NCBI GenBank assembly: GCA_964445025.1
Contig: CAYUJM010000003.1
Span: 5,475 to 69,474 of the forward strand
Reading direction: 5' to 3'
DNA: 64,000 nt
Source: an uncultured Terracidiphilus sp.
GTDB lineage: Bacteria > Acidobacteriota > Terriglobia > Terriglobales > Acidobacteriaceae
Below, piece after piece: positions 30,809 through 56,949 of this stretch. Numbering within the stretch: the first letter of the stretch is position 1; each line of letters opens with the position of its first letter. The position numbers and the translations under genes were made by a program. The notes below the pieces were generated by a model. It worked only from the letters and a program-made list of their open reading frames with translations. It was not told where the DNA came from and ran no database searches.

Positions 30809-30822
30809 TGGAATCGATACCA
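30809..30822. promoter_or_regulatory. LacI-type operator candidate (site 1)
   Basis: TGGAATCGATACCA, a 14-bp CG-centred palindrome 7 nt downstream of the -10. Its reverse complement is identical to site 3 (45487-45500). Confidence 0.6.
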
Positions 30823-30895
30823 AGAGGTCCCGCCTCCACATGCTCGCCATTCCCAACTGCCAGTCATCCATCTCCCTAGGCCTATTGGAGGCTTC

Positions 30896-33800
30896 ATGTC
30901 CGGCTTTTCGAAAATTCTCCTGATCGCTGCGCTCATGGCGCCGGTGTCCCGCGTCCCGGCGCAGACCATGACTGCTCCCGACATTACCAAGCAACCCACG
31001 CTTTACGTGGTACCCTATGCCCACCTCGACACACAGTGGCGCTGGGAGTTTCCCCAGGTGATCAGCGAGTATCTCCTCAAGACCATGCGGGTGAACTTCT
31101 ACTACATGGATAAATACCCGCACTATGTCTTCAACTGGACGGGCTCAAATCGCTATCGGCTGATGAAGGAGTACTATCCGGCCGACTATGCGCGCCTCAA
31201 GGAGTACGTGGCCAAAGGCAACTGGTATCCCGCCGGATCCTCGGTGGAAGAGGGCGACGTGAATCTGCCCAGCGCGGAGTCGATCATTCGCCAGGTCCTC
31301 TATGGCAACACCTATTACCGCAAGGAGTTCGGCAAGGCGAGCGCGGAATACATGCTGCCGGACTGCTTTGGCTTTCCTGCATCGCTGCCGACCATTCTTG
31401 CGCATGCCGGCGTGAAAGGCTTTTCCACGCAGAAGCTGAACTCCGTATGGCAGCCTGCGCCGCTGATCGGCGGACCCGACTCCCCGGAGAAGACGCCCGA
31501 AGGCATTCCGTTCAATGTGGGGGTATGGGAGGGACCGGACGGAGAGACGATTCTCGCGGCGCTGAATCCGGGCGGCTATGGGAGCCGCATTCATTCCGAC
31601 CTGAGCAAGACGCCTCTGCCCGTGCCAGCTCCCGCGATGGGGACGAGTCCTCGCAGAATGGCCCCGCGGGAGACGGACTGGCCGAGCCGCATCGATATCG
31701 ATGGCAATGCAACCGGGGTCTACGCCGACTATCACTACGTCGGTACCGGTGACATTGGCGGCGCCGTGGATGAGGAATCGGTAAGGCTGTTGGAAGCCAC
31801 GGTGACTCAAGGGCAGGCTGTGATTCCCGCGCCCGGGTTCAACGGGGGCAATCTTGCAGGTCCCGCGCCTCAGGGAACGCCCGTCCGCATGGGCGACGGG
31901 CCCGTGACCGTGATCTCTTCGGCCGCCGATCAGATGTTCCTCGACATCAAGCCCGAAATGTATGCGCGTATGCCGCGCTACAAGGGCGATCTGGAATTGA
32001 TCAATCACTCGGCAGGCTCGCTCACCTCGCAGGCGTACCACAAGCGCTGGAACCGCAAGAATGAAATCCTTGCCGATGCCGCCGAAAAGGCTTCCGTCGC
32101 AGCCATGTGGATGGGTGGCCGCTCGTACCCGCAGCAGCGCCTCAACGATGCCTGGACGCTGGTCATGGGCGGGCAGTTCCACGATACGGGCGCGGGCACG
32201 GCGACACCCCGTTCCTATGAATTTGCGCAGAACGACGATGTCATTGCGCTCAATCAATTCGCCGACGTTCTGACCGATGCAACGCAGTCGGTGGCATCCT
32301 CGCTGGACACGCAGACGAGTGGTATCCCGATTGTGGTGTACAACTCGTTGAACATCGCGCGCGAAGATGTGGTGGAAGCCGCCGTACACTTTCCCGGCGA
32401 AGCTCCCAAGGCGGTTAGCGTGTTCGGACCCGGTGGGCGCGAAGTTCCTTCGCAGTGGGAGAATGGGAAAGTTCTGTTTCTCGCCAAGGTGCCGTCGGTC
32501 GGATACGCCGTTTACGACATTCGCCGCGCAGAAGCGCCCGCCCCGTCGACGGGTCTGAGGGCGAGTGCGACGACGCTGGAGAATCTGCGTTATCGCGTCA
32601 CCATCAGCCCGGATGGCAATGTCGCCAAAATCTTCGACAAGTCGCTGAAAAAGGAACTGCTCGCAGCGCCGATTCGGCTGGCCATCTCAAACGATGCGCC
32701 CAAGCAGTGGCCGGCGTGGAACATGGACTTTGACCAGGAGCAGGCCGCGCCGCGCGCTTATGTGAGCGGCCCGGCGAAGATTCGCGTGGTGGAGAACGGT
32801 CCGGTCCGGGTTGCCGTTCAGGTCTCCCGCGAGACCGAAGGGTCGAAATTTGTGCAGACGGTCCGGCTCTCGGCAGGCGATGCCGGCAATCGCGTCGAGT
32901 TTGGCGAGTCCGTCGACTGGCGCTCGCTTTCGGCAAATCTCAAGGCGGTGTTTTCTCTGTCCGCCGCCAACAAACTTGCCACCTATAACTGGGAGATTGG
33001 AACCATCCAGCGGCCCGACGCCAACGAACGCCAGTTCGAAGTGGCCTCGCACCACTGGATCGATCAGACCGATGAGTCCGGCTCCTATGGCGCAACCATC
33101 CTGACCGATGTGAAGAATGGCTCCGACAAGCGCGACGACAATACCATCCGCCTCACGCTTCTGCGCACGCCGGGAGACGCTTCGCAGATGAAGGGCGGGT
33201 ACACCGATCAACTCAACCAGGATTGGGGCCATCACGAGATTCTGTTCGGGCTCGCCGGCCACGCGGGCGACTGGCGCGAGGGTAAGACGGACTGGCAGGC
33301 CTACCGCTTGAGCACGCCGCTTATCGCCTTTGAGACGGAAAAGCACGCCGGCTCGCTGGGGCGCAGCTTCAGCCTTCTGAATATTGACAACCCGCATGTC
33401 CGCGTTCTGGCGCTCAAGAAAGCCGAAACAAGCGATGAGGTGGTTGTGCGCCTCGTGGAGATGAACGGAAATCCGGCGCCCCAGGTGCATGTGAAGTTTG
33501 CCGGGCCCATTGTCGATGCGCGCGAAGTGAACGGGCAGGAACTCCCCGTCGGCCCGGCATCGATTGTGGATGGTGCGCTCGAAACGTCGTTCAATGGTTA
33601 TCAGCCGCGCACCTTTGCCCTGCACCTCGGTGCGGCTCCTGTGCAATTGACCGATGTTGCATCGCAGCCGGTTGAACTCAAGTACGATCTTGCCGCAGCC
33701 AGCGAGGACGATACCAAGTCGACGGGCGGATTCGACCAGCAGGGTGACGCCCTGCCCGCCGAGATGCTTCCCACCGAACTCAAGGTCAATGGAGTCGGGT

Positions 33801-34471
33801 TCCATCTTGCGCCCGGCGGCGCCAACAAGCCCGACGCGGTTGTGGCGAAGGGTCAGGTCATCGATCTGCCCGAGGGCGACTTCAACAAGGTATATGTGCT
33901 TGCCGCATCCGGTCAGGGCGACCAGCAGGCTGTCTTCCGCGTCGGCGAGCATCCTGTGAAGCTCACCATTGAAGACTGGGGCGGCTTCATTGGGCAGTGG
34001 GACACGCGTCTCTGGAAGCCGAGGCCGGACTCTGTGACCGAGGGCGGAGGCTCCTACAGTCGCGAGGCCGCGCACCAGGTTCCGCTGCGCAAGGATTGGG
34101 CTGTCTCGGCCAACCACGCTACATGGGACTTGACCAACACCGGCTCGCCGGACTGGGCGCCGAACTACCCGGCAGACTATCTCGGCTTGCGCCCGGGTTA
34201 CGTCAAGCCGGCCACCCTGGCGTGGTACGCATCGCATCATCACACGCCGGATGGCCTCAATGAGCCGTATCAGTATAGCTATCTCTTCGTCTATGCAATG
34301 GACCTGCCCTCTCACGCGAAGACGCTGACGCTGCCTTCAAACGACAAGGTTCGGATTCTGGCCGTCTCCGTGGCCAAAGATGAGCCAGGCGTGAGCGCTG
34401 CACAACCGCTGTACGATACTCTGGGCAGGACCGAACCCGGCGCCAGTGAGGAAGCGGCTGCCGCGCACTGA
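30896..34471 (+). CDS. glycoside hydrolase family 38 (alpha-mannosidase-like), secreted, with a C-terminal extension
   Basis: GGAGG lies upstream of the ATG at 30896, and there is a signal peptide MSGFSKILLIAALMAPVSRVPAQ. GH38 N-domain blocks YVVPYAHLDTQWRW, WYPAGSSVEEGDVNLPSAESIIRQ, YMLPDCFGF. 1191 aa. Confidence 0.85.
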   Translation: MSGFSKILLIAALMAPVSRVPAQTMTAPDITKQPTLYVVPYAHLDTQWRWEFPQVISEYLLKTMRVNFYYMDKYPHYVFNWTGSNRYRLMKEYYPADYARLKEYVAKGNWYPAGSSVEEGDVNLPSAESIIRQVLYGNTYYRKEFGKASAEYMLPDCFGFPASLPTILAHAGVKGFSTQKLNSVWQPAPLIGGPDSPEKTPEGIPFNVGVWEGPDGETILAALNPGGYGSRIHSDLSKTPLPVPAPAMGTSPRRMAPRETDWPSRIDIDGNATGVYADYHYVGTGDIGGAVDEESVRLLEATVTQGQAVIPAPGFNGGNLAGPAPQGTPVRMGDGPVTVISSAADQMFLDIKPEMYARMPRYKGDLELINHSAGSLTSQAYHKRWNRKNEILADAAEKASVAAMWMGGRSYPQQRLNDAWTLVMGGQFHDTGAGTATPRSYEFAQNDDVIALNQFADVLTDATQSVASSLDTQTSGIPIVVYNSLNIAREDVVEAAVHFPGEAPKAVSVFGPGGREVPSQWENGKVLFLAKVPSVGYAVYDIRRAEAPAPSTGLRASATTLENLRYRVTISPDGNVAKIFDKSLKKELLAAPIRLAISNDAPKQWPAWNMDFDQEQAAPRAYVSGPAKIRVVENGPVRVAVQVSRETEGSKFVQTVRLSAGDAGNRVEFGESVDWRSLSANLKAVFSLSAANKLATYNWEIGTIQRPDANERQFEVASHHWIDQTDESGSYGATILTDVKNGSDKRDDNTIRLTLLRTPGDASQMKGGYTDQLNQDWGHHEILFGLAGHAGDWREGKTDWQAYRLSTPLIAFETEKHAGSLGRSFSLLNIDNPHVRVLALKKAETSDEVVVRLVEMNGNPAPQVHVKFAGPIVDAREVNGQELPVGPASIVDGALETSFNGYQPRTFALHLGAAPVQLTDVASQPVELKYDLAAASEDDTKSTGGFDQQGDALPAEMLPTELKVNGVGFHLAPGGANKPDAVVAKGQVIDLPEGDFNKVYVLAASGQGDQQAVFRVGEHPVKLTIEDWGGFIGQWDTRLWKPRPDSVTEGGGSYSREAAHQVPLRKDWAVSANHATWDLTNTGSPDWAPNYPADYLGLRPGYVKPATLAWYASHHHTPDGLNEPYQYSYLFVYAMDLPSHAKTLTLPSNDKVRILAVSVAKDEPGVSAAQPLYDTLGRTEPGASEEAAAAH

Positions 34472-34500
34472 GTGCCGAGAAGTAGAAGAACGTTTACCAC

Positions 34501-34547
34501 GGACGGTCTGGCGTCTCGCGGCTTGTAACGCGAGCGCCAGGCCGTCC
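34501..34547 (+). terminator. long GC-rich stem-loop between GH38 and the next gene (attenuator or terminator candidate)
   Basis: GGACGG-t-CTGGCG-t-CTCGCG, loop gcttgtaa, CGCGAG-CGCCAG-g-CCGTCC: 18 bp with single-nt bulges. No U-tract. It ends 25 nt before the GTG at 34572. Confidence 0.35.
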
Positions 34548-34571
34548 GCATTGAGATTGAGGTGAATCGCA

Positions 34572-37025: not shown

Positions 37026-37080
37026 AAGCGTTGAGGCTCCAAACGAGTTAACGACATCAGAAGTCTCACTAACTCCGGAG

Positions 37081-39267: not shown

Positions 39268-39562
39268 AGAGTTCCCTCGAGGGTTCAATTCCAAAACACC
39301 GAGAGTATACGCCCAGCGGCCGAGCCATCGTGATCTCCATGGCGCGTTGACGGCTGCGCGCCAGGATGCACGCCCTTGTTCCGGCCGGGCAAGTTGCAAC
39401 TGGTATTCTCTGACGCGTTAGACCCGATGACTTCAATCGCGGTTAGGAGGGAATTTATCTCCTGGCAGGTCAGCCCAAACCATAAGAGCCTTGCTTTTTC
39501 CCCATGAGCCGGCCACCGCCGGTCGCTTCTCCGTTAGAGCGCTGGTTGGCGGGCGTCCATCT

Positions 39563-41518: not shown

Positions 41519-41541
41519 ACTCAATCGGTGGAGGAACCCGG

Positions 41542-45426: not shown

Positions 45427-45455
45427 TTGACAGCGATAATTTGTCGGACTAACAT
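45427..45455 (+). promoter_or_regulatory. sigma70-type promoter of the TonB-dependent receptor gene
   Basis: TTGACA (45427-45432), 17-nt spacer, TAACAT (45450-45455). Confidence 0.5.
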
Positions 45456-45464
45456 CGCTCGCTA

Positions 45465-45478
45465 TGGAATCGATGTCA
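45465..45478. promoter_or_regulatory. LacI-type operator candidate (site 2)
   Basis: TGGAATCGATGTCA, 10 nt downstream of the -10 hexamer. Confidence 0.55.
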
Positions 45479-45486
45479 CTCCGATA

Positions 45487-45500
45487 TGGTATCGATTCCA
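45487..45500. promoter_or_regulatory. LacI-type operator candidate (site 3)
   Basis: TGGTATCGATTCCA, 22 nt centre-to-centre from site 2. Sites 2 and 3 together form a 10-bp perfect inverted repeat, TGGAATCGAT...ATCGATTCCA. Confidence 0.6.
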
Positions 45501-45593
45501 CCATCAACCAGTGAAGCCGGTCAACGATCCGATCGTTGCCCATGTCTGAAATCACGGTTTGAATCAGGAAAGAGAAGCACTCAAGGAGACCCA

Positions 45594-48500
45594 GTGAGAC
45601 AAATAATAAAAGCTCAGGAGCGCCCTTCCCCGTCCCAACTCATCCAAATCCCGCTAGTTGCCCTCGCTTTTGTATTGGCAACTATGGGATTGATGCTGTT
45701 GGCTCCTCGGAATGCTTCCGCGCAAGCCAGCGCGGGCATTACCGGAACAGTTACGGATACCAGCGGCGCCGTGATCAAGGGCGCCCATGTAGCCATCACC
45801 AATGAGGCCACCGCGGCCACCGATCGTACGGTGACCGAAAGCGCGGGAACGTATTCCTTCAAAGGCGTATTGCCGGGAAAGTACACCATTACGATTGACG
45901 CCCAGGGGTTCAAGAAAGCCGTTCAGAAAGGTGTGAACGTCGAGGTCAGTACCACTCCTACCGTTGACATCACCCTCAGCCCCGGCGCCGCAAGCGAGAC
46001 CGTGAATGTCGCGGCCGATGAGGTTGCGTTGAATACCACCCAGCCGGAATTGGGCAGCACCATTGAGCCGGTTGTCGTCGAAGCGTTGCCTACCGAAGTC
46101 TCGGGCCGCGGCCGCCAGGTCGATCAGCTTCAATTCATGGCCCCCGGAACCACGGGCGGCACCTTCTCTCACCGCATCAGCGGCGGCGTCGATTTCGAGC
46201 AGGAGATCATCTACAACGGCATCCCCGCTCCTCAGCCGGAGACCGAAGGTTACACCACCAACTTCAATCCCCCGTTCGACTTGGTTGAAGAGTCCAAGGT
46301 CGAGCGTTCGACCTTCTCCGCACAGTATGGCCTTGGTCAGGGAGCTTTGACTTATCAAATGAAGTCGGGCACCAACCAGTACCACGGCAGCGCATTTGAA
46401 ATCAACCGCAACAGCCTCTTTGATTCCGTGCCCTTTTTCGACGGCCCGGCATGGGGTGGCTCCACCAAGCCACCCACCGATCACGAGAACAACTACGGCT
46501 TCTCGATCGGCGGCCCCATCCGCATTCCGCATCTTTACGATGGACGCAACAAGACCTTCGGCAACTACAGCCAGGAGTGGTACAAGCAGGCCGAACTGAA
46601 CGACGGCATTTCAAGCGTGCCCACAGCCCTGGAAAAGACCGGAAACTTCACTGACTTTGTGGACTCCACCGGAGCTCTGGTCCCCATCTTCGATCCGACC
46701 ACCGGGCAGCAGTTCCAATGCAACGGCGTGCTCAACGTGATTTGCCCCAACCGGATCAGCGCCAATTCTGCGTTGATCATCCCGTTCATTCCCAATCCTG
46801 ACCGTCCAGGCAGCGGCCCCGGCGGCTTAGAAACCAACAAGAGCGCCGCGCCCAACTCATTCCCGAATATCCAGCACGTCTGGGGATTCGTGGTTGACCA
46901 GACGCTCACGCCCACGCAGAGCCTGCACTACGCTGAGTGGCGCAATAGTTTCTCCACCACCAGCTTTGACAACTCTCCGCTGGTCCTAGCTCCCAACCCG
47001 CTCAACAGCATGAAGTATGAGCCGGCCCTGGGCAGCATCTTCCTGTTGAATTACACCAACGCCATCACGCCACACCTCGTGGCGACCGCTGGATTTGGCT
47101 GGATTGGCGAGATCAACAACCAGTTCAACGATACTGTTGGATGCGGCGCAACCTCAGGGTGCTCGGGCCTTTATCCTCAGATACAGAACGAGGACGTCCC
47201 TCCCTACATAACGTGGTCTGGAGGCGGCCCGAACAACTACACCGACTGGGGCACCCAGGGTTCGTGGCGAGAATCCATTAACCGCAAGCTGGGAATCGCC
47301 ATCGTCAACAACTGGCTCTGGACCAAGGGCCGCCACACTTTCAACATCGGCGGTGAGTTCCGCCGCGCCTATCAGGATGACAACGAGGAGCAGACCGAGG
47401 GTGGACAGTTCACGTTCAGCAATCACGAGACGTCCAACCCAAGCAGCCCGAACTTCCAGACCGAGGGCAGTTCGTTTGCCAGCTTCCTTCTCGGACTTCC
47501 CGATGAGGCAAATCGAAGCGAGAGCCAGGAACTGAGGCTGCGCAATCTGGATATCTCACCCTACATCCAGGACGACATCAAGCTGTCGTCGAAGCTCACT
47601 CTGAATCTCGGCGTCCGCTGGGATATTCAGGTGCCCTTTACCGAAAACCACAACCTGATCGTGTTCTTCGATCCCGATAATCCTGGGACCAATCCGGCGG
47701 CCGGCGGCATCCCCGGCGGTCTCCAGCAATTCGGCGTGAACGGCACATACACTCGTGCCGACACCCACTGGGGCCATTTTGGTCCGCGCCTCGGTTTTGC
47801 CTACAAGCTGGACAACAAGACCGTGGTACAAGGCGGCCTGGATGTCGCGTTCCTCGATGGCGGCGCTTATGAGTACGGCACCAACAAGGTCGCGGTGAAC
47901 TACGGTAACCTGCTCACCGGCGCCTTCGCACGCAACAGCACGGGAAGCAACGTATCGGGATTCGGGAGCTGGGATACCAATGCCATTCCCGCGCCTGCCG
48001 CTACACCCTTCGGTCCAAGCATCGGCAACGGTCTGCAGGTGGACGCTTTCAGCAGGAAGGACGGATACGCTCCCTATAGCCAGCAGTGGAACATCAATGT
48101 GCAGCGCGAACTCCCTTACAACATGTTTGTGATGGCTGCATGGGCCGGAAACCGCGTCATCCACCTGCCCAGCCAGAACAATGAGATCGACCAGATGAAC
48201 CCGAGTTTCGACGCCCAATACGGCAACACGCTGAGTACCTGCGCGGCTAACAAAGGCAATTCGGTGTTGTCCGACACGTTTTCAAGCGGCTGCGCACAGG
48301 CGGACGGATTCACCACTCCATATGCCAACTTCGTGAACGACTTTGGGTCAAGTTCCACCGTGGAACAGTCGCTCGTTCCCTACCCGCAATTCACCAAGAT
48401 CTTCAACAACTTTGAAGGTTTTGGCACCACCTATTACCAGAGCCTCCAGGTTGAAGTGGATAAACGCTTCAGCAACGGCTTGTCCTTCCTGGCGGGCTAT

Positions 48501-49229
48501 ACGCTCTCCCACCTGATGGACAATACCAGCAGCGGTTTCTCCAGCTTCACCTCCGGCGGCATCAACAAGTACAACCAGAAACCGGAATGGGCCGTCTCTG
48601 AATCGGACGAACCGCAAACCTTCAAGGCGAGCGGAACCTACGAACTGCCGATCGGTCCTGGCAAGAAGTACGTCAACAACCACGCCCTGGGCAACATCGT
48701 GGGCGGCTGGCAGGTCGGCTGGATTCTCGACTATGAGGGAGGATCGCCTGGCAGCTGCTGCAACGGCAGTACCGTCGACGAGAACGGCTCGCCGTTCCCG
48801 AATGGATTCAATAGGCCGAATCGAAACACTTCCGTCAAGCTTGGAACCGCCTCCTACAAGAACGAGAAGAACCAGTGGCTCGCAGGCGCTAACGCCGCTC
48901 CGGCGCAGATCTGGAATCCCGCTGGCTTTACGGCCACCTCATCTCAATACGTTATCGGTGACTCTCTCAGGTCTTATGGCAAGCTGAGAACGCCCGGTAT
49001 CGCCAATGAGAGCATCAATGCCAGGAAGCACTTCTACATTGGAGAGCGCGTCCAGGCGATTCTCCAGGTGGACTACTTCAACGCATTCAACCGGACCATC
49101 TTCAACGGTCCCGACGGGAACTTTAGCGACACCACCTTTGGCCAGACCGTTTCCGAGGGCGCCAACAACAACGCCTTCAACGGCACTGCAAACCGGCAAG
49201 GCCAGGTTCAGTTCCGATTACAGTTCTGA
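45594..49229 (+). CDS. TonB-dependent receptor with an N-terminal carboxypeptidase-regulatory-like (CarboxypepD_reg) domain
   Basis: GTG 45594 with AGGAG upstream and a signal peptide ending NASAQA. ITGTVTDTSGAVIKGAHVAITNEAT...YSFKGVLPGKYTITIDAQGF is a typical CarboxypepD_reg domain. About 1200 aa of beta-barrel-like sequence follow, ending in an aromatic residue (RLQF). Confidence 0.85.
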   Translation: MRQIIKAQERPSPSQLIQIPLVALAFVLATMGLMLLAPRNASAQASAGITGTVTDTSGAVIKGAHVAITNEATAATDRTVTESAGTYSFKGVLPGKYTITIDAQGFKKAVQKGVNVEVSTTPTVDITLSPGAASETVNVAADEVALNTTQPELGSTIEPVVVEALPTEVSGRGRQVDQLQFMAPGTTGGTFSHRISGGVDFEQEIIYNGIPAPQPETEGYTTNFNPPFDLVEESKVERSTFSAQYGLGQGALTYQMKSGTNQYHGSAFEINRNSLFDSVPFFDGPAWGGSTKPPTDHENNYGFSIGGPIRIPHLYDGRNKTFGNYSQEWYKQAELNDGISSVPTALEKTGNFTDFVDSTGALVPIFDPTTGQQFQCNGVLNVICPNRISANSALIIPFIPNPDRPGSGPGGLETNKSAAPNSFPNIQHVWGFVVDQTLTPTQSLHYAEWRNSFSTTSFDNSPLVLAPNPLNSMKYEPALGSIFLLNYTNAITPHLVATAGFGWIGEINNQFNDTVGCGATSGCSGLYPQIQNEDVPPYITWSGGGPNNYTDWGTQGSWRESINRKLGIAIVNNWLWTKGRHTFNIGGEFRRAYQDDNEEQTEGGQFTFSNHETSNPSSPNFQTEGSSFASFLLGLPDEANRSESQELRLRNLDISPYIQDDIKLSSKLTLNLGVRWDIQVPFTENHNLIVFFDPDNPGTNPAAGGIPGGLQQFGVNGTYTRADTHWGHFGPRLGFAYKLDNKTVVQGGLDVAFLDGGAYEYGTNKVAVNYGNLLTGAFARNSTGSNVSGFGSWDTNAIPAPAATPFGPSIGNGLQVDAFSRKDGYAPYSQQWNINVQRELPYNMFVMAAWAGNRVIHLPSQNNEIDQMNPSFDAQYGNTLSTCAANKGNSVLSDTFSSGCAQADGFTTPYANFVNDFGSSSTVEQSLVPYPQFTKIFNNFEGFGTTYYQSLQVEVDKRFSNGLSFLAGYTLSHLMDNTSSGFSSFTSGGINKYNQKPEWAVSESDEPQTFKASGTYELPIGPGKKYVNNHALGNIVGGWQVGWILDYEGGSPGSCCNGSTVDENGSPFPNGFNRPNRNTSVKLGTASYKNEKNQWLAGANAAPAQIWNPAGFTATSSQYVIGDSLRSYGKLRTPGIANESINARKHFYIGERVQAILQVDYFNAFNRTIFNGPDGNFSDTTFGQTVSEGANNNAFNGTANRQGQVQFRLQF

Positions 49230-49287
49230 GCTTCGCGGTGCAATCCCGCAAAAAGGATTTGCATCGCATGTATCCCTCCTAACCATC

Positions 49288-49324
49288 GCCGGACTGCCCC
49301 CAAAGCAGTCCGGCTTTTTTCTTT
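49288..49324 (+). terminator. Rho-independent terminator after the TonB-dependent receptor
   Basis: GCCGGACTGC (49288-49297), 7-nt loop, GCAGTCCGGC (49305-49314), followed by TTTTTTCTTT. Confidence 0.85.
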
Positions 49325-49439
49325 GCAGCCGAATCACTCTCGCGCGCCAGAAGACTTGATCGCTGCGCGAACCCCGGAACTGCAATACTTCCGCGATGCA
49401 ACAGCGTTGCGAACCAACTATAATCACAGGTCATGAGGG

Positions 49440-49451
49440 TGGATCGATCCA
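49440..49451. promoter_or_regulatory. 12-bp perfect palindrome related to the operator motif (shortened variant)
   Basis: TGGATCGATCCA lies 15 nt downstream of a TATAAT hexamer (49419-49424) and abuts the ATG at 49451. It lacks the W at positions 4 and 11 of the 14-mer. Confidence 0.35.
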
Positions 49452-50623
49452 TGTCATTGTCTCGCTGTGCGCCGCGATTACTGGCTGTGCTCTTGCTGGC
49501 TCTTGTGGCAACTATCGCTTTTGCCCGGCAGGCGAATGACGAAGTTACGCCCCAGGTGCAGCAGTTGTATGCGGAGGCAAAAGCCGCGCAGCAGCAAGGC
49601 GACAGCGCAGCGGCAATCGCGAAATACCGCGCCATGATCAAGCTTGCGCCGCACCTGGCCGCCGCCTACAACAACCTGGGCATGCTCTACTTCAATGAGC
49701 GTGACTATTCCCATGCCGCGGAGGTGCTCAAGCGCGGATTGGAGATTCAGCCGGATATGCCCACGGCCTCGGCCATGTTAGGCATGAGTTATTTTCAGTT
49801 AGGCATGAACGACAAGGCTGAGCCGCTTCTGCGCGCAGTGCAGCGCGCCAAGCCGGACGACGACCATGTGGAGATGGTCCTGGTGCATATCCTCATCAAC
49901 CTGAGGAAGTATGGAGAGGCGGCATCGTATCTGAACAACTTCCTGGAGCGGAACCCGAAGAATCAGGAAGGATGGTATATGCTCGGCAAAACATATCTGC
50001 AGATGTCCGAGGACGCGCTCAAAAAGATCAATGAAATCGATCCGAATTCCGTGGTTGCGCATGAGATCGCCGGCGAGATCGATGAGAGCATGCACAACTA
50101 CGATGTGGCTCTGGTGGAATACAAGAAGGCCGTCGACATGGCCCCGCACGAGCCTGGAACGCATATGCACATGGCAAATGCGTATTGGCTCACCGGCAAG
50201 TGGGAGTCGGCGCAGGATGAGTTCAAGGCGGAGCTGACCAACGACCCCAACAACTGCACCGCCCGATGGAAGCTGGCCAACGCCATGCTGGAGGCAAACG
50301 ACTCCAGCGAGGACGCGCTCGCGCAGTTGAACCAGTCCATCGAGCGCTGCCCACTTCTGATGCAGGCGCGCGTAGACCGGGCCCGCGCGCTCATCCGGCT
50401 CGGGAAGCAGAGCGATGCCTTGCCCGACCTGCAGTTGGCCGTCAAGGACAGCCCCTCTGAGCCGACCATTCATTTTCTTCTCGCCACTGTCTACAGGTCG
50501 CAGGGCAAGGCCGCCGATGCTCAGCAGGAGATGCGCACGTATAGCGAGTTGCAGCGGGCGGCCAGTGAAGCCGTGGCGGGACAGGCAAATGATGCCAGCG
50601 CAATCAAGAGTGCCGCACACTAG
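49451..50623 (+). CDS. tetratricopeptide repeat protein (secreted)
   Basis: ATG 49451 with AGGGTGG upstream; ATG 49433 is the alternative. Signal peptide MSLSRCAPRLLAVLLLALVATIAFA, followed by multiple TPR units. Confidence 0.75.
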   Translation: MSLSRCAPRLLAVLLLALVATIAFARQANDEVTPQVQQLYAEAKAAQQQGDSAAAIAKYRAMIKLAPHLAAAYNNLGMLYFNERDYSHAAEVLKRGLEIQPDMPTASAMLGMSYFQLGMNDKAEPLLRAVQRAKPDDDHVEMVLVHILINLRKYGEAASYLNNFLERNPKNQEGWYMLGKTYLQMSEDALKKINEIDPNSVVAHEIAGEIDESMHNYDVALVEYKKAVDMAPHEPGTHMHMANAYWLTGKWESAQDEFKAELTNDPNNCTARWKLANAMLEANDSSEDALAQLNQSIERCPLLMQARVDRARALIRLGKQSDALPDLQLAVKDSPSEPTIHFLLATVYRSQGKAADAQQEMRTYSELQRAASEAVAGQANDASAIKSAAH

Positions 50624-50627
50624 CCCG

Positions 50628-51575
50628 ATGGCGCTTGTCGGAAAATGCGTGCTCGGAGCGTTCCTGCTCTGCGCTCGTGCGGCCATTTGTCAGCAGCTTC
50701 CGGACTCGCTGGCCGAGCCGCGTGCGCTCATTGCGCAGGGCAAGCTCGCAGCGGCTGAGGCATCTCTCCACGATTTTGTGAAACAGCATCCCGCTTCCGC
50801 GGATGCGCATTTCCTGCTCGGCTATGTCTTGTTTCGTGAACAGAAGGCAGTGGACTCGCTGGCGGAGTTCACCGCCGGCGCCCACGTACGGCGGCCGAAA
50901 GCGGATGAGCTGAAAACCGTGGCGTCAGATTATGTATTGCTGCGCGACTACGCCGACGCCGATAAGTGGTTTACCGAGGTTGTGGTCGAGACTCCTGACG
51001 ATGCGGAAGCCTGGTATCTTCTTGGGCGGACCAAGTACAACGAAAACGGATTCTCCAACGCTGTTTCGAGCTTCGAGCGCGCGCTGGCCTTGCATCCCAA
51101 ATACATTGAAGCCGAAAACAACCTCGGATTGTCATGGAAGGAATTGAATAACCCGGAGAAGGCGAAGGCTGCTTTTCAGACCGCGATTGACTGGCAGGGA
51201 GATGCCCCCGCAGACGCTCAGCCATTCCTGAATCTCGGCACGTTGCTTGCGGATCAGAGCGACTTCGATAAATCGATCCTTTATCTGACGAAGGCCGTCT
51301 CGCTGTCCCCGGAAAATCCCAGGATTCATGAGGAGCTAGGCCAGGTTTACGAGGCTCAAAAGAACCTGCCGCAAGCGCAAGCCGAACTGGAAAAGGCAGT
51401 CGCGCTGGCTCCGGATAGCTCAGCGCTGCACTTCAGGCTGGGGCAGATCTACCGCCATGAGGGCCTTCGCGACCGCGCCCAGCACGAATTCGATCTGTGC
51501 GAAAAGCTGAACAGCACTCACTCCTCAGCCAGCACGCCCAATCCCCCGGCTCTCGGTCCGGCTGTGCCCCACTGA
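50628..51575 (+). CDS. tetratricopeptide repeat protein (secreted)
   Basis: The ATG at 50628 lies 5 nt after the previous stop. Signal peptide MALVGKCVLGAFLLCARAAICQ, followed by TPR units. The track ORF start (50415) overlaps the previous gene. Confidence 0.75.
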   Translation: MALVGKCVLGAFLLCARAAICQQLPDSLAEPRALIAQGKLAAAEASLHDFVKQHPASADAHFLLGYVLFREQKAVDSLAEFTAGAHVRRPKADELKTVASDYVLLRDYADADKWFTEVVVETPDDAEAWYLLGRTKYNENGFSNAVSSFERALALHPKYIEAENNLGLSWKELNNPEKAKAAFQTAIDWQGDAPADAQPFLNLGTLLADQSDFDKSILYLTKAVSLSPENPRIHEELGQVYEAQKNLPQAQAELEKAVALAPDSSALHFRLGQIYRHEGLRDRAQHEFDLCEKLNSTHSSASTPNPPALGPAVPH

Positions 51576-51731
51576 GCAACTGGCTGGTGGGTGCGGCCAG
51601 GCCCCTGGGCGTGCATTCCCCGACAAAGAACTGGCAACCTGAAAATCGGTTTTCCGCCGTTGTGCGAGGGCCCGTCGTCTCCCCTGGGAAAGCTCGTTTC
51701 ACCTCGGTTCCATGCAAAACTAAAAAATCTG

Positions 51732-51745
51732 TGGTATCGTTTCCA
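51732..51745. promoter_or_regulatory. LacI-type operator candidate (site 4)
   Basis: TGGTATCGTTTCCA. The 17-mer TGTGGTATCGTTTCCAA (51730-51746) is identical to 56804-56820. It overlaps the -35 position of the TATAAT at 51765-51770. Confidence 0.6.
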
Positions 51746-51770
51746 ACCCTGTGTTCCAAAGGGGTATAAT
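51741..51770 (+). promoter_or_regulatory. promoter of the second GH38 gene
   Basis: Perfect TATAAT (51765-51770), with a weak -35 TTCCAA (51741-51746) at 18-nt spacing. Confidence 0.4.
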
Positions 51771-51849
51771 TCGCGGAGACGTTACGGCGGGGTCGCACTG
51801 GTGCGGAAAAGAGCCGTCGCCGATCGCGAAGGGATGCGGGAGTTCTGGA

Positions 51850-54800
51850 ATGAAGAATGTGACAGGTAGCGGAGTTGGAAGGCATGCATTGAGCATCAGC
51901 CTGTTGTCCTTGGCGTTCTGCATGTTTGTGGGATCGTTCGGCCGGGCGCTGGCCCTTGCGCAATCAGCGGAGCAGGCGGCGCAGGTTGTCAAATCGCTTG
52001 ATGGCAAATCCAAGGCGGTGGTTGCCCGCCTGTCCGAGTTGGATCAGCTGCCGGCGGATGAGTGGCGCTTCCACGTGGGAGATCTGGCGCATGGGGAGTC
52101 CACCGAACTGGACGACTCGTCATGGCAGGTGGTGAAGGCCCAGGCACAGGGAGCGCAGGAAGCGGAGTGGTTCCGTCGGTGGATTGAAGTGCCGCAAAGC
52201 CTCCATGGCTACGACTTGACCGGCGCGCGGATTTGGTTCTCCTTCTCTGCCAATGCCAATGGCCCCATGCCGGAGATCATCTACTTCAACGGGCGTCGCG
52301 TGGCTCTGGGCGACGATCTTGAGCCGATCGTCCTCTTCGATAAGGCCAAGCCCGGCGACAAAGTTCTGGTGGCCGTGAAGCTGTTGCACACCGTGGATAA
52401 GAAGACCTTCGACGGCGCAAATCTCAAGATCGACTTTGCCGAGAACCGGCCGAATCCGGAGGACCTGCGGTTGGAAATCCTGTCCGCGTCCTTGCTTGTT
52501 CCCAGTCTCTCGAAGAGTGTCGAGGCCGACACGGCGACTCTGGAGAAGGCAGCGGGCGCGGTGGATTTGGATGCTCTGGATGCAAAGGACCAGGCAAAAT
52601 TCGACGCTTCCCTGAAGCAGGCGCAATCCACGCTCGAGCAGCTCAAGCTGCTGTTGCAGCAGGGGACGCTCCATTTGACGGGCAACTCGCACATCGACGC
52701 GGCTTGGCTCTGGCCCTGGACGGAGACCGTGGACACGGTGAAGCGTACCTTCGGCACCGCGTTGCAACTGATGAACGAGTACCCCGATTACACCTACACC
52801 CAGTCCGCGGCTCAATACAACGCATGGCTCGCTGACAAGTATCCGCAGATGAACGATGAGATCAAGCAGCGCATCAAGGAAGGGCGTTGGGAGATCGTCG
52901 GCGGAATGTGGGTCGAACCCGACTTGAACATGCCCGATGGCGAGGCACAGGTACGTTCGCTCCTGGTGGGCAAGCGCTGGTTCCAGAAAGAATACGGCGT
53001 CGACGTCAGGATCGGGTGGAATCCTGATTCCTTCGGATACACCTGGCAGTTACCGCAGATTTACAAGAAGTCCGGCGTCGACTACTTCGTCACGCAGAAG
53101 ATGACCTGGAATGACACCAATCAGCTTCCCTTCAAGCTCTTCTGGTGGGAGTCGCCGGACGGGAGCAAGGTGCTGACTTACTTCCCGCACGACTACGCGA
53201 ACGACAATCTGAACCCGGTGCGTCTTGCCTACGATCTGTCCCAGGCGCGGGAGAGAGCGCCGGGGACGACCGAGATCATGGACCTCTATGGCATCGGCGA
53301 TCATGGCGGCGGGCCGACGCGTGCAATCCTGGATGAGGGTGTGCACTGGATGCAGCCGGATAAGGTCGTTCCCAAGTCGAATTTCGGAACTGCCCAGACT
53401 TACTTCACCAGCATTGAAACCAAGTTGGCCGCAGACTCGCCGGTGTGGGATTACGACTCCATCGCCAAGGGATACAAGGCTCCCGCAACGCCGGCCGATG
53501 GGCAGGTTGCGATTCCCACCTGGAAAAGCGAGCTCTATTTTGAATATCACCGCGGCGTGATGACCACCCAGGCCAATCACAAGCGCAACATGCGCGACAG
53601 CGAAGAGCAGGCCATCAACGCCGAGAAGCTGGCGTCGCTGGCGTGGCTTGCGGGCAAACCGTATCCCGGCGATGCGCTCACCGAAGCGTGGAAGAAAATC
53701 ACCTTCAACGACTTCCACGATCTGGCCGCGGGCTCGGGCATCGGCATCATCTATAAGGAAGCGCAGAAGGACTTCGACGATGTGCGCTGGGCCACGAACG
53801 AAATCTCCCAGCAGTCGCTGAAGACTGTGTCTGCCGCGATCAATACGCAGGTAGCCGGGGGCGTGCCTGTCCTGGTGCTGAATCCGCTGGCCTGGGAGCG
53901 TTCAGGGCCGGTCACGGTGGATGTGCAGTTACCCACCGCAGCCGCGGGTGGCGTCTCCGTGCTGGACGCGGCCAACCACGTTGTGCCGTCGCAGGTGCTC
54001 AAAAGCGATGCTGCGACCAACAGCTACAAACTCCTGGTCCTGGCCAACAATGTGCCGTCCCTGGGCTACAAGGTGTTGCACGTCGTCTCCGGCGCAAAAA
54101 CGTTTGCCAGCGATCTGAAGGCAGAGGGATTCAAGCTGGAAAACTCCGCGCTGAAGGTCACGGTAGACAACCAGACCGGCTGCATCACCAGCCTTTACGA
54201 CAAAAAGACGAAGTTCGAGACACTCGCTCCGGGCGCCTGCGGCAACCAGTTGCAGACGTTCAAAGACCTGCCCAAGGATTACGATGCGTGGAACATCGAT
54301 CCCGGCACGCTCGATCATTTCACCTCCATCGATAAGGCCGATTCTGTCGAGCTTGTCGAAAAGGGCCCGCTGCGCAGCGCAATTCGTGTCACGCGCACCT
54401 GGCAGAGTTCGAAGTTCGTGCAGGACATCACGCTCGACGCCGGCTCGGATCAGGTGGACGTGGTCAACGACATCGACTGGCATGAAACGCATGTCTTGCT
54501 GAAGGCTGCTTTCCCACTCGCCGCCACCAGCAACAAGGCCACTTACGAGGTCCCATACGGCAGCATTCAGCGGACCACGACGCGCAACAATAGCTGGGAG
54601 CAGGCGCAGTTCGAGGTGCCGGTGCTGCGCTGGGCCGATCTGGGCGATGGGCAGCACGGCTTCAGCCTGATCAATAACTCGAAGTATGGCTACGACGATA
54701 AGGACAACGTGCTTCGTATCTCCCTGCTTCGTTCGCCCACCTGGCCCGATCCGGACGCCGACCGCGGACATCATCACTTCACCTATGCACTCTATCCCCA

Positions 54801-55182
54801 CAGCGGCGATTGGAAGCAGGCGCTGACAGTGCGCCACGGGTACGAATACAACTACCAGTTGCAGGCCACTCAGGTGCAGTCCCATGCCGGGAGCATGCCG
54901 GCAGAGTTCGCGTATGTAACTGTCAAGCCGGAGAACGTTGTACTCACGGCAATGAAGAAAGCCGAGGATTCCAACAGCTTGATCTTCCGCGTGTATGAAT
55001 GGGCAGGGAAATCAGGGGATGTTGAATTCCATGTGCCCAAGGGCGCCACGGGAGCAACCATCACCAATCTGATGGAAAAGCCTGAAGGCACAGCACTCAA
55101 GGTCGCGGACGATACGGTTACGGCTCCGATTCATCCGTATGAAATTCTGACCCTGCGTGTGGACTACACAGCAAATCAATAG
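51850..55182 (+). CDS. glycoside hydrolase family 38 alpha-mannosidase (secreted)
   Basis: ATG 51850 with a signal peptide. Classic GH38 blocks LTGNSHIDAAWLWPW, GRWEIVGGMWVEPDLNMPDGEAQVRS, GWNPDSFGY, FVTQKMTWND. 1110 aa. Confidence 0.92.
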   Translation: MKNVTGSGVGRHALSISLLSLAFCMFVGSFGRALALAQSAEQAAQVVKSLDGKSKAVVARLSELDQLPADEWRFHVGDLAHGESTELDDSSWQVVKAQAQGAQEAEWFRRWIEVPQSLHGYDLTGARIWFSFSANANGPMPEIIYFNGRRVALGDDLEPIVLFDKAKPGDKVLVAVKLLHTVDKKTFDGANLKIDFAENRPNPEDLRLEILSASLLVPSLSKSVEADTATLEKAAGAVDLDALDAKDQAKFDASLKQAQSTLEQLKLLLQQGTLHLTGNSHIDAAWLWPWTETVDTVKRTFGTALQLMNEYPDYTYTQSAAQYNAWLADKYPQMNDEIKQRIKEGRWEIVGGMWVEPDLNMPDGEAQVRSLLVGKRWFQKEYGVDVRIGWNPDSFGYTWQLPQIYKKSGVDYFVTQKMTWNDTNQLPFKLFWWESPDGSKVLTYFPHDYANDNLNPVRLAYDLSQARERAPGTTEIMDLYGIGDHGGGPTRAILDEGVHWMQPDKVVPKSNFGTAQTYFTSIETKLAADSPVWDYDSIAKGYKAPATPADGQVAIPTWKSELYFEYHRGVMTTQANHKRNMRDSEEQAINAEKLASLAWLAGKPYPGDALTEAWKKITFNDFHDLAAGSGIGIIYKEAQKDFDDVRWATNEISQQSLKTVSAAINTQVAGGVPVLVLNPLAWERSGPVTVDVQLPTAAAGGVSVLDAANHVVPSQVLKSDAATNSYKLLVLANNVPSLGYKVLHVVSGAKTFASDLKAEGFKLENSALKVTVDNQTGCITSLYDKKTKFETLAPGACGNQLQTFKDLPKDYDAWNIDPGTLDHFTSIDKADSVELVEKGPLRSAIRVTRTWQSSKFVQDITLDAGSDQVDVVNDIDWHETHVLLKAAFPLAATSNKATYEVPYGSIQRTTTRNNSWEQAQFEVPVLRWADLGDGQHGFSLINNSKYGYDDKDNVLRISLLRSPTWPDPDADRGHHHFTYALYPHSGDWKQALTVRHGYEYNYQLQATQVQSHAGSMPAEFAYVTVKPENVVLTAMKKAEDSNSLIFRVYEWAGKSGDVEFHVPKGATGATITNLMEKPEGTALKVADDTVTAPIHPYEILTLRVDYTANQ

Positions 55183-55220
55183 TCGTTGGCAGGCGTGCGC
55201 GGGTGCGCTGCTTGCTCCAC

Positions 55221-55257
55221 GTGGCGCTCGGATCCTATCCGGGCGCCACATTTTTTT
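55221..55257 (+). terminator. Rho-independent terminator after the second GH38 gene
   Basis: GTGGCGCTCGG ... CCGGGCGCCAC stem (one mismatch), followed by A and then seven T (55251-57). Confidence 0.75.
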
Positions 55258-55262
55258 CATCT

Positions 55263-56309
55263 TCAGGCAGTGGCTGGATGGCAGCCGCAGGAATTGCGCA
55301 GGATCAGGCAGGTCTTCAGCTTGAATTGCCGCGCCATCTTGGAAGAAGTCGATGGAGCGGCCTTGCGCTCATCGAATAACTGCTCGAAGAGAATCTCCGC
55401 CGCCCTGCGCCCGATCTCTTCTACCGGCTGCTGGATTACGCTGATGGAGGGCCGAACCGTTGAAGCAAGCTCGAAGTCATCGAAGCCCAGCAAGGCAATG
55501 GTTTGGGGCACCGGGATATTGAACTTCTGCAGCGCCTCGAAGGCGTAAATAGTAGTGCTGTTCTTGAGAGCAAAAATGGCGTCCGGCGGATTCGGTCCGT
55601 CCAGCAGGTTCTTTACGGCGTATTCGGCGGACTTGTAGTCCGTGACTGAGGTGTCGAAGATGGGTGTCAAATGCGCGGATTCGATAGCCTTGCGATATCC
55701 GTTCATTCGCTCGCGAATGGTGTACAGGCTGCTTTCCCCGGTCAGGCACACAATCCGCTTGTAGCCGTGATCGATCAGATGCTGCGTGGCAGTCATCGCG
55801 CCCTTCAGGTTGTCGGCCACCACCGAGGTGATCGACGAGTTGCCCACGGGGCGATCGATCGCCACAACCGGTATGGCGACCCGGTTGAGCAGGTCGCGCA
55901 GGGCGTGACTCTGCGAGTCGGCAGGCACAATGATGAGCCCGTCCACTCGATGGCGGATGAGAACGTTCAAGTTATCCAGCTCATTGCGCGCGTCGTTTGC
56001 CGTCACCGTCACAATCAGCAGCGAATCGTTGGTGCGCGCCACAGCTTGTGCGGCTTCGGCGCAGCTTGAAAAGAACGGATCGGCGATGCTGGGAATTACC
56101 AGCCCAATGGTCTTGGTGCGGTGACCTTTCAGGGTCCGTGCAGCCTGGTTCGGCATGTAACCGAGTGCTTCAATCACCCGCCGCACATGATCCAATGTTT
56201 TGGGGCTCACACGATCGCCGCCGTTGATGACGCGGGAGACTGTAGTGGTGCCAACGCCCGCTTTTCGGGCGACCTGGCTGAGAGTTGGGTGCGTGCTTTG
56301 CTTAGCCAT
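55263..56309 (-). CDS. LacI-family transcriptional regulator
   Basis: Start at the ATG 56307-56309. HTH PTLSQVARKAGVGTTTVSRVINGG, followed by a periplasmic-binding-protein-like effector domain. Confidence 0.92.
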   Translation of the reverse strand: MAKQSTHPTLSQVARKAGVGTTTVSRVINGGDRVSPKTLDHVRRVIEALGYMPNQAARTLKGHRTKTIGLVIPSIADPFFSSCAEAAQAVARTNDSLLIVTVTANDARNELDNLNVLIRHRVDGLIIVPADSQSHALRDLLNRVAIPVVAIDRPVGNSSITSVVADNLKGAMTATQHLIDHGYKRIVCLTGESSLYTIRERMNGYRKAIESAHLTPIFDTSVTDYKSAEYAVKNLLDGPNPPDAIFALKNSTTIYAFEALQKFNIPVPQTIALLGFDDFELASTVRPSISVIQQPVEEIGRRAAEILFEQLFDERKAAPSTSSKMARQFKLKTCLILRNSCGCHPATA

Positions 56310-56805
56310 TTGAATGCGGCTTAGTTTGAGTACTTTGCCGTGTAATAAGTCTATGCCGCCCAGCCTCAAAAGTTAAGTTTCTCCACAAGATTTCACTCTG
56401 CAGCGCAGGAAAACTCTTGTCGGGATGCGCGCAAAGACAGGCTTGCCTGCTGGTGGGGACTGCAGCGAGCTAACAGCATGCAATTATCTGCAAACTCGGC
56501 ATAGCTCTGGCAGGATTTGTGGCAGCTTTTGATCGTTTCCGGCTCAAGTAAGCACGAGCAACTAAGTCTGAAGCGTGTTCGATCGCGGCTCCTTCCGCTT
56601 GCACAGACATTTCAATCTTCAGGGGCAGCCGATTGTTTCACTCACCTGCCCGGTTGCGCCGCCCGCAGGCATCCCGCGCGATCGTGGCCTGCTTCTTGAT
56701 GGCTTCATCATGGGATGGATTCGGGGCTCACGGCATTTCACTTATGCGTCGCGACAAACCGGCTTCCATCAGGCGCAAATTGGGTTTGCGCGTTGATCGT
56801 GCGTG

Positions 56806-56819
56806 TGGTATCGTTTCCA
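56806..56819. promoter_or_regulatory. LacI-type operator candidate (site 5), upstream of the ROK kinase
   Basis: TGGTATCGTTTCCA, identical to site 4, about 130 nt upstream of the ROK start codon. Confidence 0.6.
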
Positions 56820-56949
56820 ATTACGGCAATTCAAGGCAGGCAAATGCGGGCTCTGTTAATTCGCTGGGGACTCTTTCTTTTCCCGTTTGCCTGGCAAACC
56901 AACTTAATAAGGGTGCTCTATGGCATCCAAACGCGTACGGTGATTTGAG

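Follow-up and report, generated by a model that had tools for sequence, protein, structure and literature searches.

A 14-bp palindrome at alpha-mannosidase, outer-membrane protein and ROK kinase genes of Acidobacteriaceae: the predicted operator of a local LacI-family repressor

Five palindromic sites and the genes they precede

A stretch of 64,000 nt from contig CAYUJM010000003.1 (assembly GCA_964445025.1), which belongs to an uncultured Terracidiphilus sp. of the Acidobacteriaceae and is hereafter referred to in its entirety as the window (all coordinates refer to it), encodes two alpha-mannosidases of glycoside hydrolase family 38 (GH38-1 and GH38-2), an outer-membrane protein that resembles TonB-dependent receptors, a sugar kinase of the ROK family, and a regulator of the LacI family (Table 1). 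A preliminary description of this DNA noted five copies of a 14-bp palindrome in front of the two mannosidase genes, the receptor-like gene, and the kinase gene, and proposed on this basis that the four genes form a LacI regulon. The analysis reported here, which extends to orthologous loci in related genomes, supports that grouping.

The exact pattern TGGWATCGWTWCCA matches the window four times, at 30809, 45487, 51732, and 56806, whereas 100 dinucleotide-preserving shuffles of the window contained no match and none is expected by chance. Allowing up to two mismatches adds only one further match, at 45465 (TGGAATCGATGTCA). A symmetric position weight matrix (PWM) trained on these five window sites only assigns them scores of 19.8–24.5 bits, while the runner-up 14-mer in the 64 kb, located within the open reading frame (ORF) of TPRa, scores 12.6 bits. 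The coordinates of the five sites given in the preliminary description are thereby borne out, and its further statements that the site at GH38-1 is the reverse complement of the second site of the outer-membrane protein gene (O2) and that the sites at GH38-2 and ROK are embedded in a common 17-mer (TGTGGTATCGTTTCCAA) were found to be correct. Likewise, all of the sites (5/5) are in intergenic DNA, as had been claimed; arithmetic on the gene coordinates indicates that intergenic DNA accounts for about 7% of the interval from 30.5 to 60.6 kb. The consensus, TGGWAWCGWTWCCA, is an even palindrome with a central CG pair and an invariant TGG...CG...CCA frame. Two weaker relatives of the motif that had been proposed alongside the five sites were rejected, since neither is conserved nor supported by the PWM: the first (56528–56541) scores 2.4 bits and falls in a non-conserved stretch in 13 aligned LacI-ROK spacers, and the second (TGGATCGATCCA, 49440–49451) scores negatively in every register and has no match in 80 orthologous loci. 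Ranked third among the sub-threshold PWM matches of the window, TGGAATCGATTTTG (56982–56995; 11.7 bits) falls within the ROK coding sequence. It specifies the motif IGIDFGG near the N-terminus of the kinase and looks like a coding coincidence and not a site.

The position of the sites relative to promoter-like elements differs among the target genes. At GH38-1, the operator begins 7 nt past the -10 element (ending at 30801) and covers the likely transcription start. In front of the outer-membrane protein gene, the first of two operators (O1) begins 9 nt past the -10 element (ending at 45455) and is separated from O2 by 22 nt, start to start; the AAGGAGA ribosome-binding site of this gene is conserved in orthologues. 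Both placements agree with those originally described. For GH38-2, no promoter was called by the consensus promoter scanner, and the -10 element was assigned, despite the silent scanner, because a TATAAT is conserved in orthologue alignments. A total of 19 nt separates the operator end from this TATAAT, so that the operator overlaps the -35 position, as had been suggested, and this spacing is near-constant in the aligned orthologues, which also share an AATGAA start context. Placement at a promoter is thus borne out for GH38-1, the outer-membrane protein gene, and GH38-2; at ROK, 130 nt lie between the operator end and the ATG and a promoter was not located. As a separate observation, about 19 nt from the GH38-2 -10 element onward (TATAATTCGCGGAGACGTT, within 51765–51790) are near-invariant in orthologues while the remaining leader is variable, and RNAalifold applied to 14 of these leaders gave no consensus structure.

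Table 1. Features of the locus, listed by position in the window
Feature	Position	Strand	Remarks
Promoter-like element of GH38-1, TTGACA-17-TACCAT	30773..30801	+	CTTGACA and -10 kept in GH38-1 orthologues with their own promoter
Operator at GH38-1, TGGAATCGATACCA	30809..30822	.	24.5 bits; site in 12 orthologous GH38-1 promoters
GH38-1 alpha-mannosidase	30896..34471	+	Four GH38 Pfam domains; N-terminal sequence MSGFSKILLIAALMAPVSRVPAQT signal-peptide-like by eye
TPR/PD40 protein	34572-37025	+	
TPR/aspartyl-protease-like protein	37081-39399	-	
Three FG-GAP/ASPIC (CRTAC1-like) paralogues	39491-45209	+	
Promoter-like element of outer-membrane protein gene, TTGACA-17-TAACAT	45427..45455	+	CTTGACA and TAnnAT kept in 15 aligned upstream regions
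Operator O1, TGGAATCGATGTCA	45465..45478	.	19.8 bits; kept in orthologues
Operator O2, TGGTATCGATTCCA	45487..45500	.	24.5 bits; kept in orthologues
TonB-dependent-receptor-like outer-membrane protein	45594..49229	+	CarboxypepD_reg and OMP_b-brl_4 (E=1e-156); signal-peptide-like N-terminus by eye
Terminator-like hairpin and T-run behind outer-membrane protein gene	49288..49324	+	
Two TPR-protein genes (TPRa, TPRb)	49433..51575	+	Syntenic partners of outer-membrane protein gene
Operator at GH38-2, TGGTATCGTTTCCA	51732..51745	.	22.6 bits; 17 orthologous sites
-10 (TATAAT) of GH38-2, then conserved block TCGCGGAGACG	51765..51770	+	Orthologue alignment
GH38-2 alpha-mannosidase, Ams1/class-2C type	51850..55182	+	Signal-peptide-like N-terminus by eye
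LacI-family regulator, predicted repressor	55263..56309	-	LacI helix-turn-helix and Peripla_BP_1/3/4
Promoter-like element of regulator gene, TTAACT-17-TAGACT, without operator	56348..56376	-	13 aligned LacI-ROK spacers; below scanner threshold
Operator upstream of ROK, TGGTATCGTTTCCA	56806..56819	.	22.6 bits; 52 orthologous sites, constant orientation toward ROK
ROK-family sugar kinase, without DNA-binding domain	56950..58017	+	ROK domain at residues 10-333
MacB/FtsX-type permease, duplicated	58132-60618	+	

The two mannosidases are only 28.6% identical to each other and, therefore, the motif that they share is not the product of a duplicated promoter. The best solved relatives of GH38-2 are of the Ams1 type (PDB 6lz1 and 5jm0; E~1e-118), with solved bacterial GH38 enzymes matching at E~1e-25. 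Because it has a signal-peptide-like N-terminus (judged by eye, as were those of GH38-1 and the outer-membrane protein), which Ams1 does not have, GH38-2 seems to represent a bacterial and exported counterpart of an enzyme whose substrates are free high-mannose oligosaccharides. The likeness of GH38-2 to fungal Ams1/class-2C enzymes apparently includes an N-terminal region of about 270 residues. The label of TonB receptor that was given to the outer-membrane protein in the preliminary description stands in part: the CarboxypepD_reg domain and the beta-barrel model agree with it, while the match to the Plug domain, although at the expected position, is weak and below threshold (E=0.04; 14.9 bits vs a cut-off of 23.9) and no sequence match to solved structures was found in the PDB.

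Conservation of the sites in related genomes

A search that included one genome per species identified 80 loci with orthologues of the regulator (62–91% identity), amounting to 1.46 Mb in total. These derive from Terracidiphilus, Acidicapsa, Occallatibacter, Alloacidobacterium, Pseudacidobacterium, Acidipila, and Granulicella and include many metagenome-assembled genomes. The loci were annotated by tblastn with the proteins of the window, and each site was assigned to the nearest target. Sites with scores of at least 14 bits are present in 74 of the 80 loci. At a threshold of at least 17 bits, a total of 151 sites were detected, compared with 1.5–3 expected under a background model and 0–6 in Markov simulations; at a threshold of at least 22 bits, the corresponding numbers are 114 sites, about 0.1, and 0–1. 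Conservation of the motif upstream of orthologous genes, which the preliminary description had put forward as a check on the proposed regulon, is therefore well in excess of expectation. The nearest downstream gene is that of the outer-membrane protein for 61 of the 151 sites, ROK for 52, GH38-2 for 17, GH38-1 for 12, LacI only for 1, and MacB for 1, with 1 additional site inside a coding region and 6 without an assigned homologue. By nearest target, 142 sites are thus upstream of the four target families, in support of a predicted LacI regulon that includes both mannosidases, the TonB-like receptor, and the kinase. Of the six unassigned sites, four are in front of genes for paralogues of the CarboxypepD_reg/OMP_b-brl_4 type, one (locus L009) seems to be a relic where GH38-2 was lost, and one is at a contig edge. 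The median distance from site to start codon is 84–134 nt for GH38-1, the outer-membrane protein gene, and ROK.

The association between site and target persists despite changes in gene order and orientation between genera. The arrangements seen include ROK< op LacI> GH38-2< op; LacI> op ROK>; GH38-1< op LacI> op OMP>; and OMP> GH38-1> operons preceded by a single site (op, operator; OMP, outer-membrane protein gene; arrowheads give orientation). Moreover, in the six loci that lack sites, the target genes are likewise missing nearby and, therefore, the sites follow the targets. In other genera, ROK is followed either by a sugar porter of the major facilitator superfamily (MFS; 12 loci) or by a DUF4964-DUF5127-GtaA six-hairpin protein (7 operator-bearing loci). 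It can also be noted that in L020, L066, and L075, LacI orthologues without nearby operators stand beside genes for DUF5054, a GH20 hexosaminidase, and a DUF4964-DUF5127-GtaA six-hairpin protein, neighbours that hint at a wider N-glycan or mannan context.

Footprint alignments of the upstream regions revealed that only the -35 element, the -10 element, the operator or operators, and the ribosome-binding site are kept and that the intervening DNA has diverged. Information content falls to background just outside of the 14-mer, save for weak flanking A/T. Tandem operators in orthologues are 19–22 nt apart, mostly 21 or 22 nt, which equals two helical turns. The commonest variant of the operator, TGGTATCGTTTCCA, contains two non-complementary pairs (4/11 and 6/9) that are kept in dozens of genomes and, at ROK and GH38-2, has a fixed orientation toward the gene. 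Retention of the non-complementary pairs, together with the fixed orientation, argues for recognition of the half-sites by a protein and not for an RNA hairpin.

A motif-first scan of metagenomes for the exact 14-mer returned 120 contigs, most of them chance matches in unrelated organisms with GC contents of 27–70%, and is not to be read as a genome-wide test of specificity. Outside of six acidobacterial contigs, 106 of 114 sites fall in long stop-free stretches. In all of the six acidobacterial contigs, which represent the informative part of the scan (6/120), a site is upstream of a GH38-1, GH38-2, ROK, or outer-membrane protein gene, at a distance of 82–137 nt for all but one site. The regulator orthologue adjoins the site in two of these six contigs, which were found by the motif alone.

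The regulator and its predicted operator

By tblastn, the gene at 55263–56309 is the only LacI-family gene detectable in the window, in line with the preliminary description. Its product comprises an N-terminal helix-turn-helix (HTH; PF00356, E=3.8e-15, residues 29–74 of the extended ORF) that aligns to the DNA-binding domains of RbsR, CcpA, PurR, and LacI and a C-terminal effector domain of the periplasmic-binding-protein-like (type I) fold (PF00532, PF13377, and PF13407). The closest solved full-length relative is RbsR (9ny7; E=6e-47), and the protein scores below every NCBIfam equivalog cut-off, those of RbsR and CcpA included (for the CcpA equivalog, TIGR01481, 162.8 bits vs a cut-off of 442). 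Among 81 orthologues, the HTH sequence GVGTTTVSRVINGG is invariant or nearly so; in the recognition-helix core, GTTTVSRVING, at most one sequence deviates per position and most positions never vary. Similarly, the hinge, PNQAAR.LKG (PNQAARTLKG in the window), which aligns with the hinges of RbsR, CcpA, and 5ysz, is near-invariant in these orthologues, and its Leu60 is invariant. Structures of PurR and LacI show this leucine of the hinge inserted into the operator DNA at its central CpG. As far as can be judged from sequence, an invariant recognition helix and hinge leucine agree with an operator that has an invariant TGG...CG...CCA frame.

When the DNA-binding domain is considered alone, its closest relative in the PDB is 5ysz (E=2.4e-18), which we take to be an actinobacterial CelR. 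The two residues that precede the recognition-helix core are TT in the regulator and RG in 5ysz; the TT residues correspond in the alignment to LacI Tyr17 and Gln18, two known determinants of specificity. The present operator shares the 14-bp frame TGG-NNN-CG-NNN-CCA with CebR/CelR boxes, and its conserved core is equal in length to the 14-bp box of the actinobacterial LacI-family repressor CebR (TGGGAGCGCTCCCA; PMC4358012). CebR and CelR, like the regulator proposed here, are LacI-family repressors of glycan utilisation. The systems differ in their inner triplets, which are AAT, AAA, or TAT here and GAG in CebR/CelR boxes, and in substrate, with alpha-mannosides predicted here and cellobiose there. 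We infer that the difference in the inner triplets may be tied to the TT versus RG residues.

The promoter-like element of the regulator gene is located about 40 nt upstream of the regulator ATG, is conserved, and has no operator nearby, which suggests that the regulator is constitutively expressed in this gene arrangement. Autoregulation of LacI through the site at 56806 was considered and rejected for this arrangement: the distance between the site and ROK is constant, and the site is about 500 nt from the LacI start codon and beyond the conserved LacI promoter-like element, and that element carries no operator. In certain other arrangements (L044, L052, L054, L065, L068, and L077), a site does precede LacI or MacB-LacI. 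In two of these, L044 (at 7259) and L052 (at 6654), GH38-1 and MacB-LacI are divergently oriented with an operator in the region between them (in L044, 62 nt upstream of MacB), and both the permease and the regulator may be operator-controlled in arrangements of this type. Two minor features of the LacI-ROK spacer can be added. An octamer, TACGGCAA, is present just behind the ROK operator (56822–56829) and again behind the LacI -10-like box (about 56332–56339), where the copy in the window reads ACGGCAA; the copies have the same orientation relative to their own gene, are both conserved in the closest relatives, and could represent a common start-site context or a site for another factor. The public gene calls include a 73-aa ORF (56575–56796) that ends 10 nt before the ROK operator; it is probably spurious, given that the orthologous loci show no conservation in this portion of the spacer.

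The motif itself, its placement at promoters, its recurrence at these gene families in 74 of the 80 orthologous loci, and the family features of the regulator were all computed, and together they make it very probable that the palindrome is the operator of the predicted LacI-family repressor encoded at 55263–56309. The assignment of the binder derives from linkage, from family features, and from the match between operator and DNA-binding domain, and not from independent co-occurrence. As in other members of the family, a repressor dimer would be expected to bind each operator through its HTH, with the hinge-helix leucine inserted at the central CpG. Judging from geometry, the single operator over the transcription start of GH38-1 (about +1 to +14) would block initiation or promoter escape, as would the two same-face operators, 22 bp apart, at the outer-membrane protein gene (about +3 to +38), whereas the operator on the -35 position of GH38-2 would block RNA polymerase. 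Binding of a pathway sugar to the periplasmic-binding-protein-like domain would release the repressor; candidate inducers are mannose, a short manno-oligosaccharide, or mannose-6-phosphate. The annotations of the target genes suggest that the receptor-like outer-membrane protein would import alpha-mannosides, that the two putatively exported GH38 enzymes would trim these in the periplasm, and that the ROK kinase would phosphorylate the freed hexose. In other genomes, the predicted ROK operon would also supply an MFS sugar porter.

Several considerations weigh against this reading. The loci were picked by their LacI orthologue, so that the joint presence of regulator and motif is a product of the selection and does not by itself reveal which protein binds, and a paralogous LacI protein elsewhere in the genome that has the same recognition helix is a possible binder. 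The off-target rate covers the 64-kb window and about 1.5 Mb of locus flanks only, in which there are almost no off-target sites. Furthermore, the conserved core of 14 bp is shorter than the motifs of 16–22 bp in the LacI regulon atlas (Ravcheev et al., 2014; PMC4052901). Autoregulation is usual in local LacI regulons and is not evident here, where the LacI promoter lacks an operator, and the ROK promoter, on which the geometry of repression at that gene depends, was located neither by the scanner nor by orthologue alignments. The assignment of mannosides as the substrate rests on the GH38 annotation; the top NCBIfam match of the ROK kinase is to a ROK glucokinase subfamily, below the cut-off, and no mannose-6-phosphate isomerase was seen in the regulon.

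Part of this leads directly to a different proposal, namely that the sites are bound by another LacI-type protein encoded elsewhere, either a CcpA/cre-like global regulator or a paralogue, and that the neighbouring LacI is a bystander. Selection of the loci by LacI presence, the operator-free LacI promoter, and the resemblance of the motif to the cre consensus (TGWAANCGNTNWCA), with which it shares a 14-bp pseudo-palindromic form, a central CG, TG...CA ends, and, as predicted here, a LacI-family binder, are all in keeping with such a protein. We nevertheless regard this proposal as quite unlikely, given that the same LacI orthologue is adjacent in two of the six contigs recovered by motif alone and that the LacI gene stays linked to its targets through many rearrangements. 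Identity with cre/CcpA in particular was rejected: motif positions 3 and 12 are invariantly G and C where cre has W, the regulator (163 bits) is far below the CcpA cut-off of 442, and the sites are limited to four gene families in 1.46 Mb, which is a local and not a global pattern. Accordingly, the comparison drawn in the preliminary description with LacI/GalR-type operators such as cre is retained with regard to the even palindrome and central CG and dropped with regard to cre itself.

A local repressor is also to be weighed against explanations that invoke a different mode of action. If the LacI protein bound these sites and activated transcription, or had a dual role, at some promoters, ROK would be the main candidate; its site is far upstream of the start codon and, with the promoter not located, may lie upstream of the -35 element. 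A few LacI-family members, such as CcpA and FruR/Cra, do activate at some sites. However, three of the four promoters have their sites on the -35 element or on the transcription start, which is a geometry of repression, and loci of the Alloacidobacterium type contain a TATATT box roughly 20 nt downstream of the operator at ROK, so that the operator is over the -35 position there as well. Since most LacI-family regulators also bind DNA without ligand and repress (PMC4052901), activation is considered very unlikely. A role for the palindrome as an RNA hairpin in 5' leaders, or as a promoter element of an alternative sigma factor, can be entertained for GH38-1 and the outer-membrane protein gene, where the sites are downstream of the -10 element and would be transcribed. 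The GH38-2 site, in contrast, is upstream of a conserved -10 element and would not be transcribed, and the non-complementary pairs of TGGTATCGTTTCCA indicate that the half-site is kept and not the pairing. The position of the sites relative to the -35 and -10 elements varies among promoters, which is incompatible with a core promoter element, and this explanation is consequently held to be extremely unlikely. An RNA hairpin or structured leader was rejected, considering also that the GH38-2 leaders yield no consensus structure and that the window contains no Rfam family besides one tRNA.

Related systems and neighbouring genes

The LacI regulon atlas spans 7 phyla, Acidobacteria not among them, and most of its sites precede the start codon by 30–140 bp, with few in the interior of genes (Ravcheev et al., 2014; PMC4052901). 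Among its entries are the ManR regulogs for mannose and mannosides in RegPrecise, which are represented in Streptomycetaceae (SCO1078), Xanthomonadales (XAC1555), Alteromonadales (CPS_2652), and Shewanellaceae (Sama_0565) (PMC4052901). As in those regulogs, a local LacI-family regulator with a palindromic, central-CG operator is predicted here, by comparative genomics, to control mannoside catabolism. The likeness is one of kind; the phylum differs, and the targets in the present case comprise a pair of putatively exported GH38 enzymes, an outer-membrane protein of the CarboxypepD_reg type, and a ROK kinase. A second parallel is provided by the CUT loci of Xanthomonas, in which a LacI/GalR repressor controls a TonB-dependent receptor, an MFS transporter, and an enzyme; this has been demonstrated experimentally for the sux locus of Xanthomonas campestris (SuxR-SuxA-SuxB-SuxC), where the genes are over-expressed in a repressor mutant and respond to sucrose as the inducer (Blanvillain et al., 2007; PMC1790865). 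Here too, a receptor-like outer-membrane protein, degradative enzymes (two GH38), and a predicted LacI/GalR-type repressor occupy one neighbourhood, with an MFS transporter in related genomes; in the window, no homologue of the inner-membrane MFS sugar porter that characterises CUT loci was found. Unlike the sux system, the predicted substrates are mannosides and not sucrose, conserved TPR genes stand alongside, and the outer-membrane protein is of the acidobacterial CarboxypepD_reg/OMP_b-brl_4 type with a weak Plug match.

The predicted system thus resembles LacI-controlled TonB-receptor sugar loci, like those of the CUT or ManR type, and the sugar switch that it would represent is well known in other phyla; our understanding of how LacI-family proteins regulate transcription is unchanged by it. 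In agreement with a statement made in the preliminary description, searches of the literature recovered no LacI/mannosidase regulon from Acidobacteria or other regulon of this kind described for the phylum, no published regulon reconstruction for Acidobacteriaceae, and no paper that contains the exact motif strings. Acidobacteriaceae are among the most abundant bacteria of soil and peat, and a well-supported predicted operator, regulator, and target set common to 74 of 80 orthologous loci, carried among others by cultured strains of Acidicapsa, Occallatibacter, Acidipila, and Granulicella, leads to the prediction that scavenging of alpha-mannosides or high-mannose glycans is a sugar-induced trait in these organisms. 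It also links a sugar pathway to outer-membrane proteins of the CarboxypepD_reg type, which are poorly understood, and to their TPR partners. In addition, a native repressor/operator pair could be used as an inducible promoter where, as in this phylum, genetic tools are few.

Among the neighbouring genes, TPRa stands behind the gene for the outer-membrane protein in 25 of 26 orthologous loci, in most cases together with TPRb. The PWM detected no operator upstream of the TPR genes in the window, and because a terminator-like hairpin precedes TPRa, these genes are regarded as conserved neighbours and not as demonstrated members of the regulon. In some genera, a TPR/multihaem-cytochrome-like gene is inserted between two of these genes (e.g., 12003–13712 in L017). 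In many genomes, the trio of FG-GAP/ASPIC paralogues is found just ahead of the promoter of the outer-membrane protein gene and, in L026, L028, L029, and L052, an FG-GAP/ASPIC or TPR/PD40 gene is located 13–19 nt behind the operator-controlled ROK, a spacing suggestive of co-transcription and of a functional connection with the sugar system. Since TPR proteins follow the outer-membrane protein gene in nearly all of these loci and FG-GAP/ASPIC or TPR/PD40 genes follow ROK in four genomes, a broader scenario can be formulated, although it is rather unlikely: the operator would mark the core of an acidobacterial counterpart of the polysaccharide-utilisation locus, in which the CarboxypepD_reg-type outer-membrane protein and the TPR, FG-GAP/ASPIC (CRTAC1-like), and TPR/PD40 proteins would form a new glycan-capture apparatus that takes the role of SusD and surface glycan-binding proteins in Bacteroidota, with fungal or plant high-mannose glycans as substrate.

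Downstream of ROK, no terminator was detected before the MacB/FtsX-type permease gene (58132–60618). A gene of the Asparaginase_2 family, which includes glycosylasparaginases, is located 5 kb upstream of GH38-1 (24719–25909) and has no operator. A tRNA-Ala(CGC) gene (13829–13904, minus strand) is the sole Rfam or ARAGORN match in the window. The window matches a 180-kb metagenome contig from the Joint Genome Institute (JGI), and its closest relatives are Acidobacteriaceae of the Terracidiphilus type.

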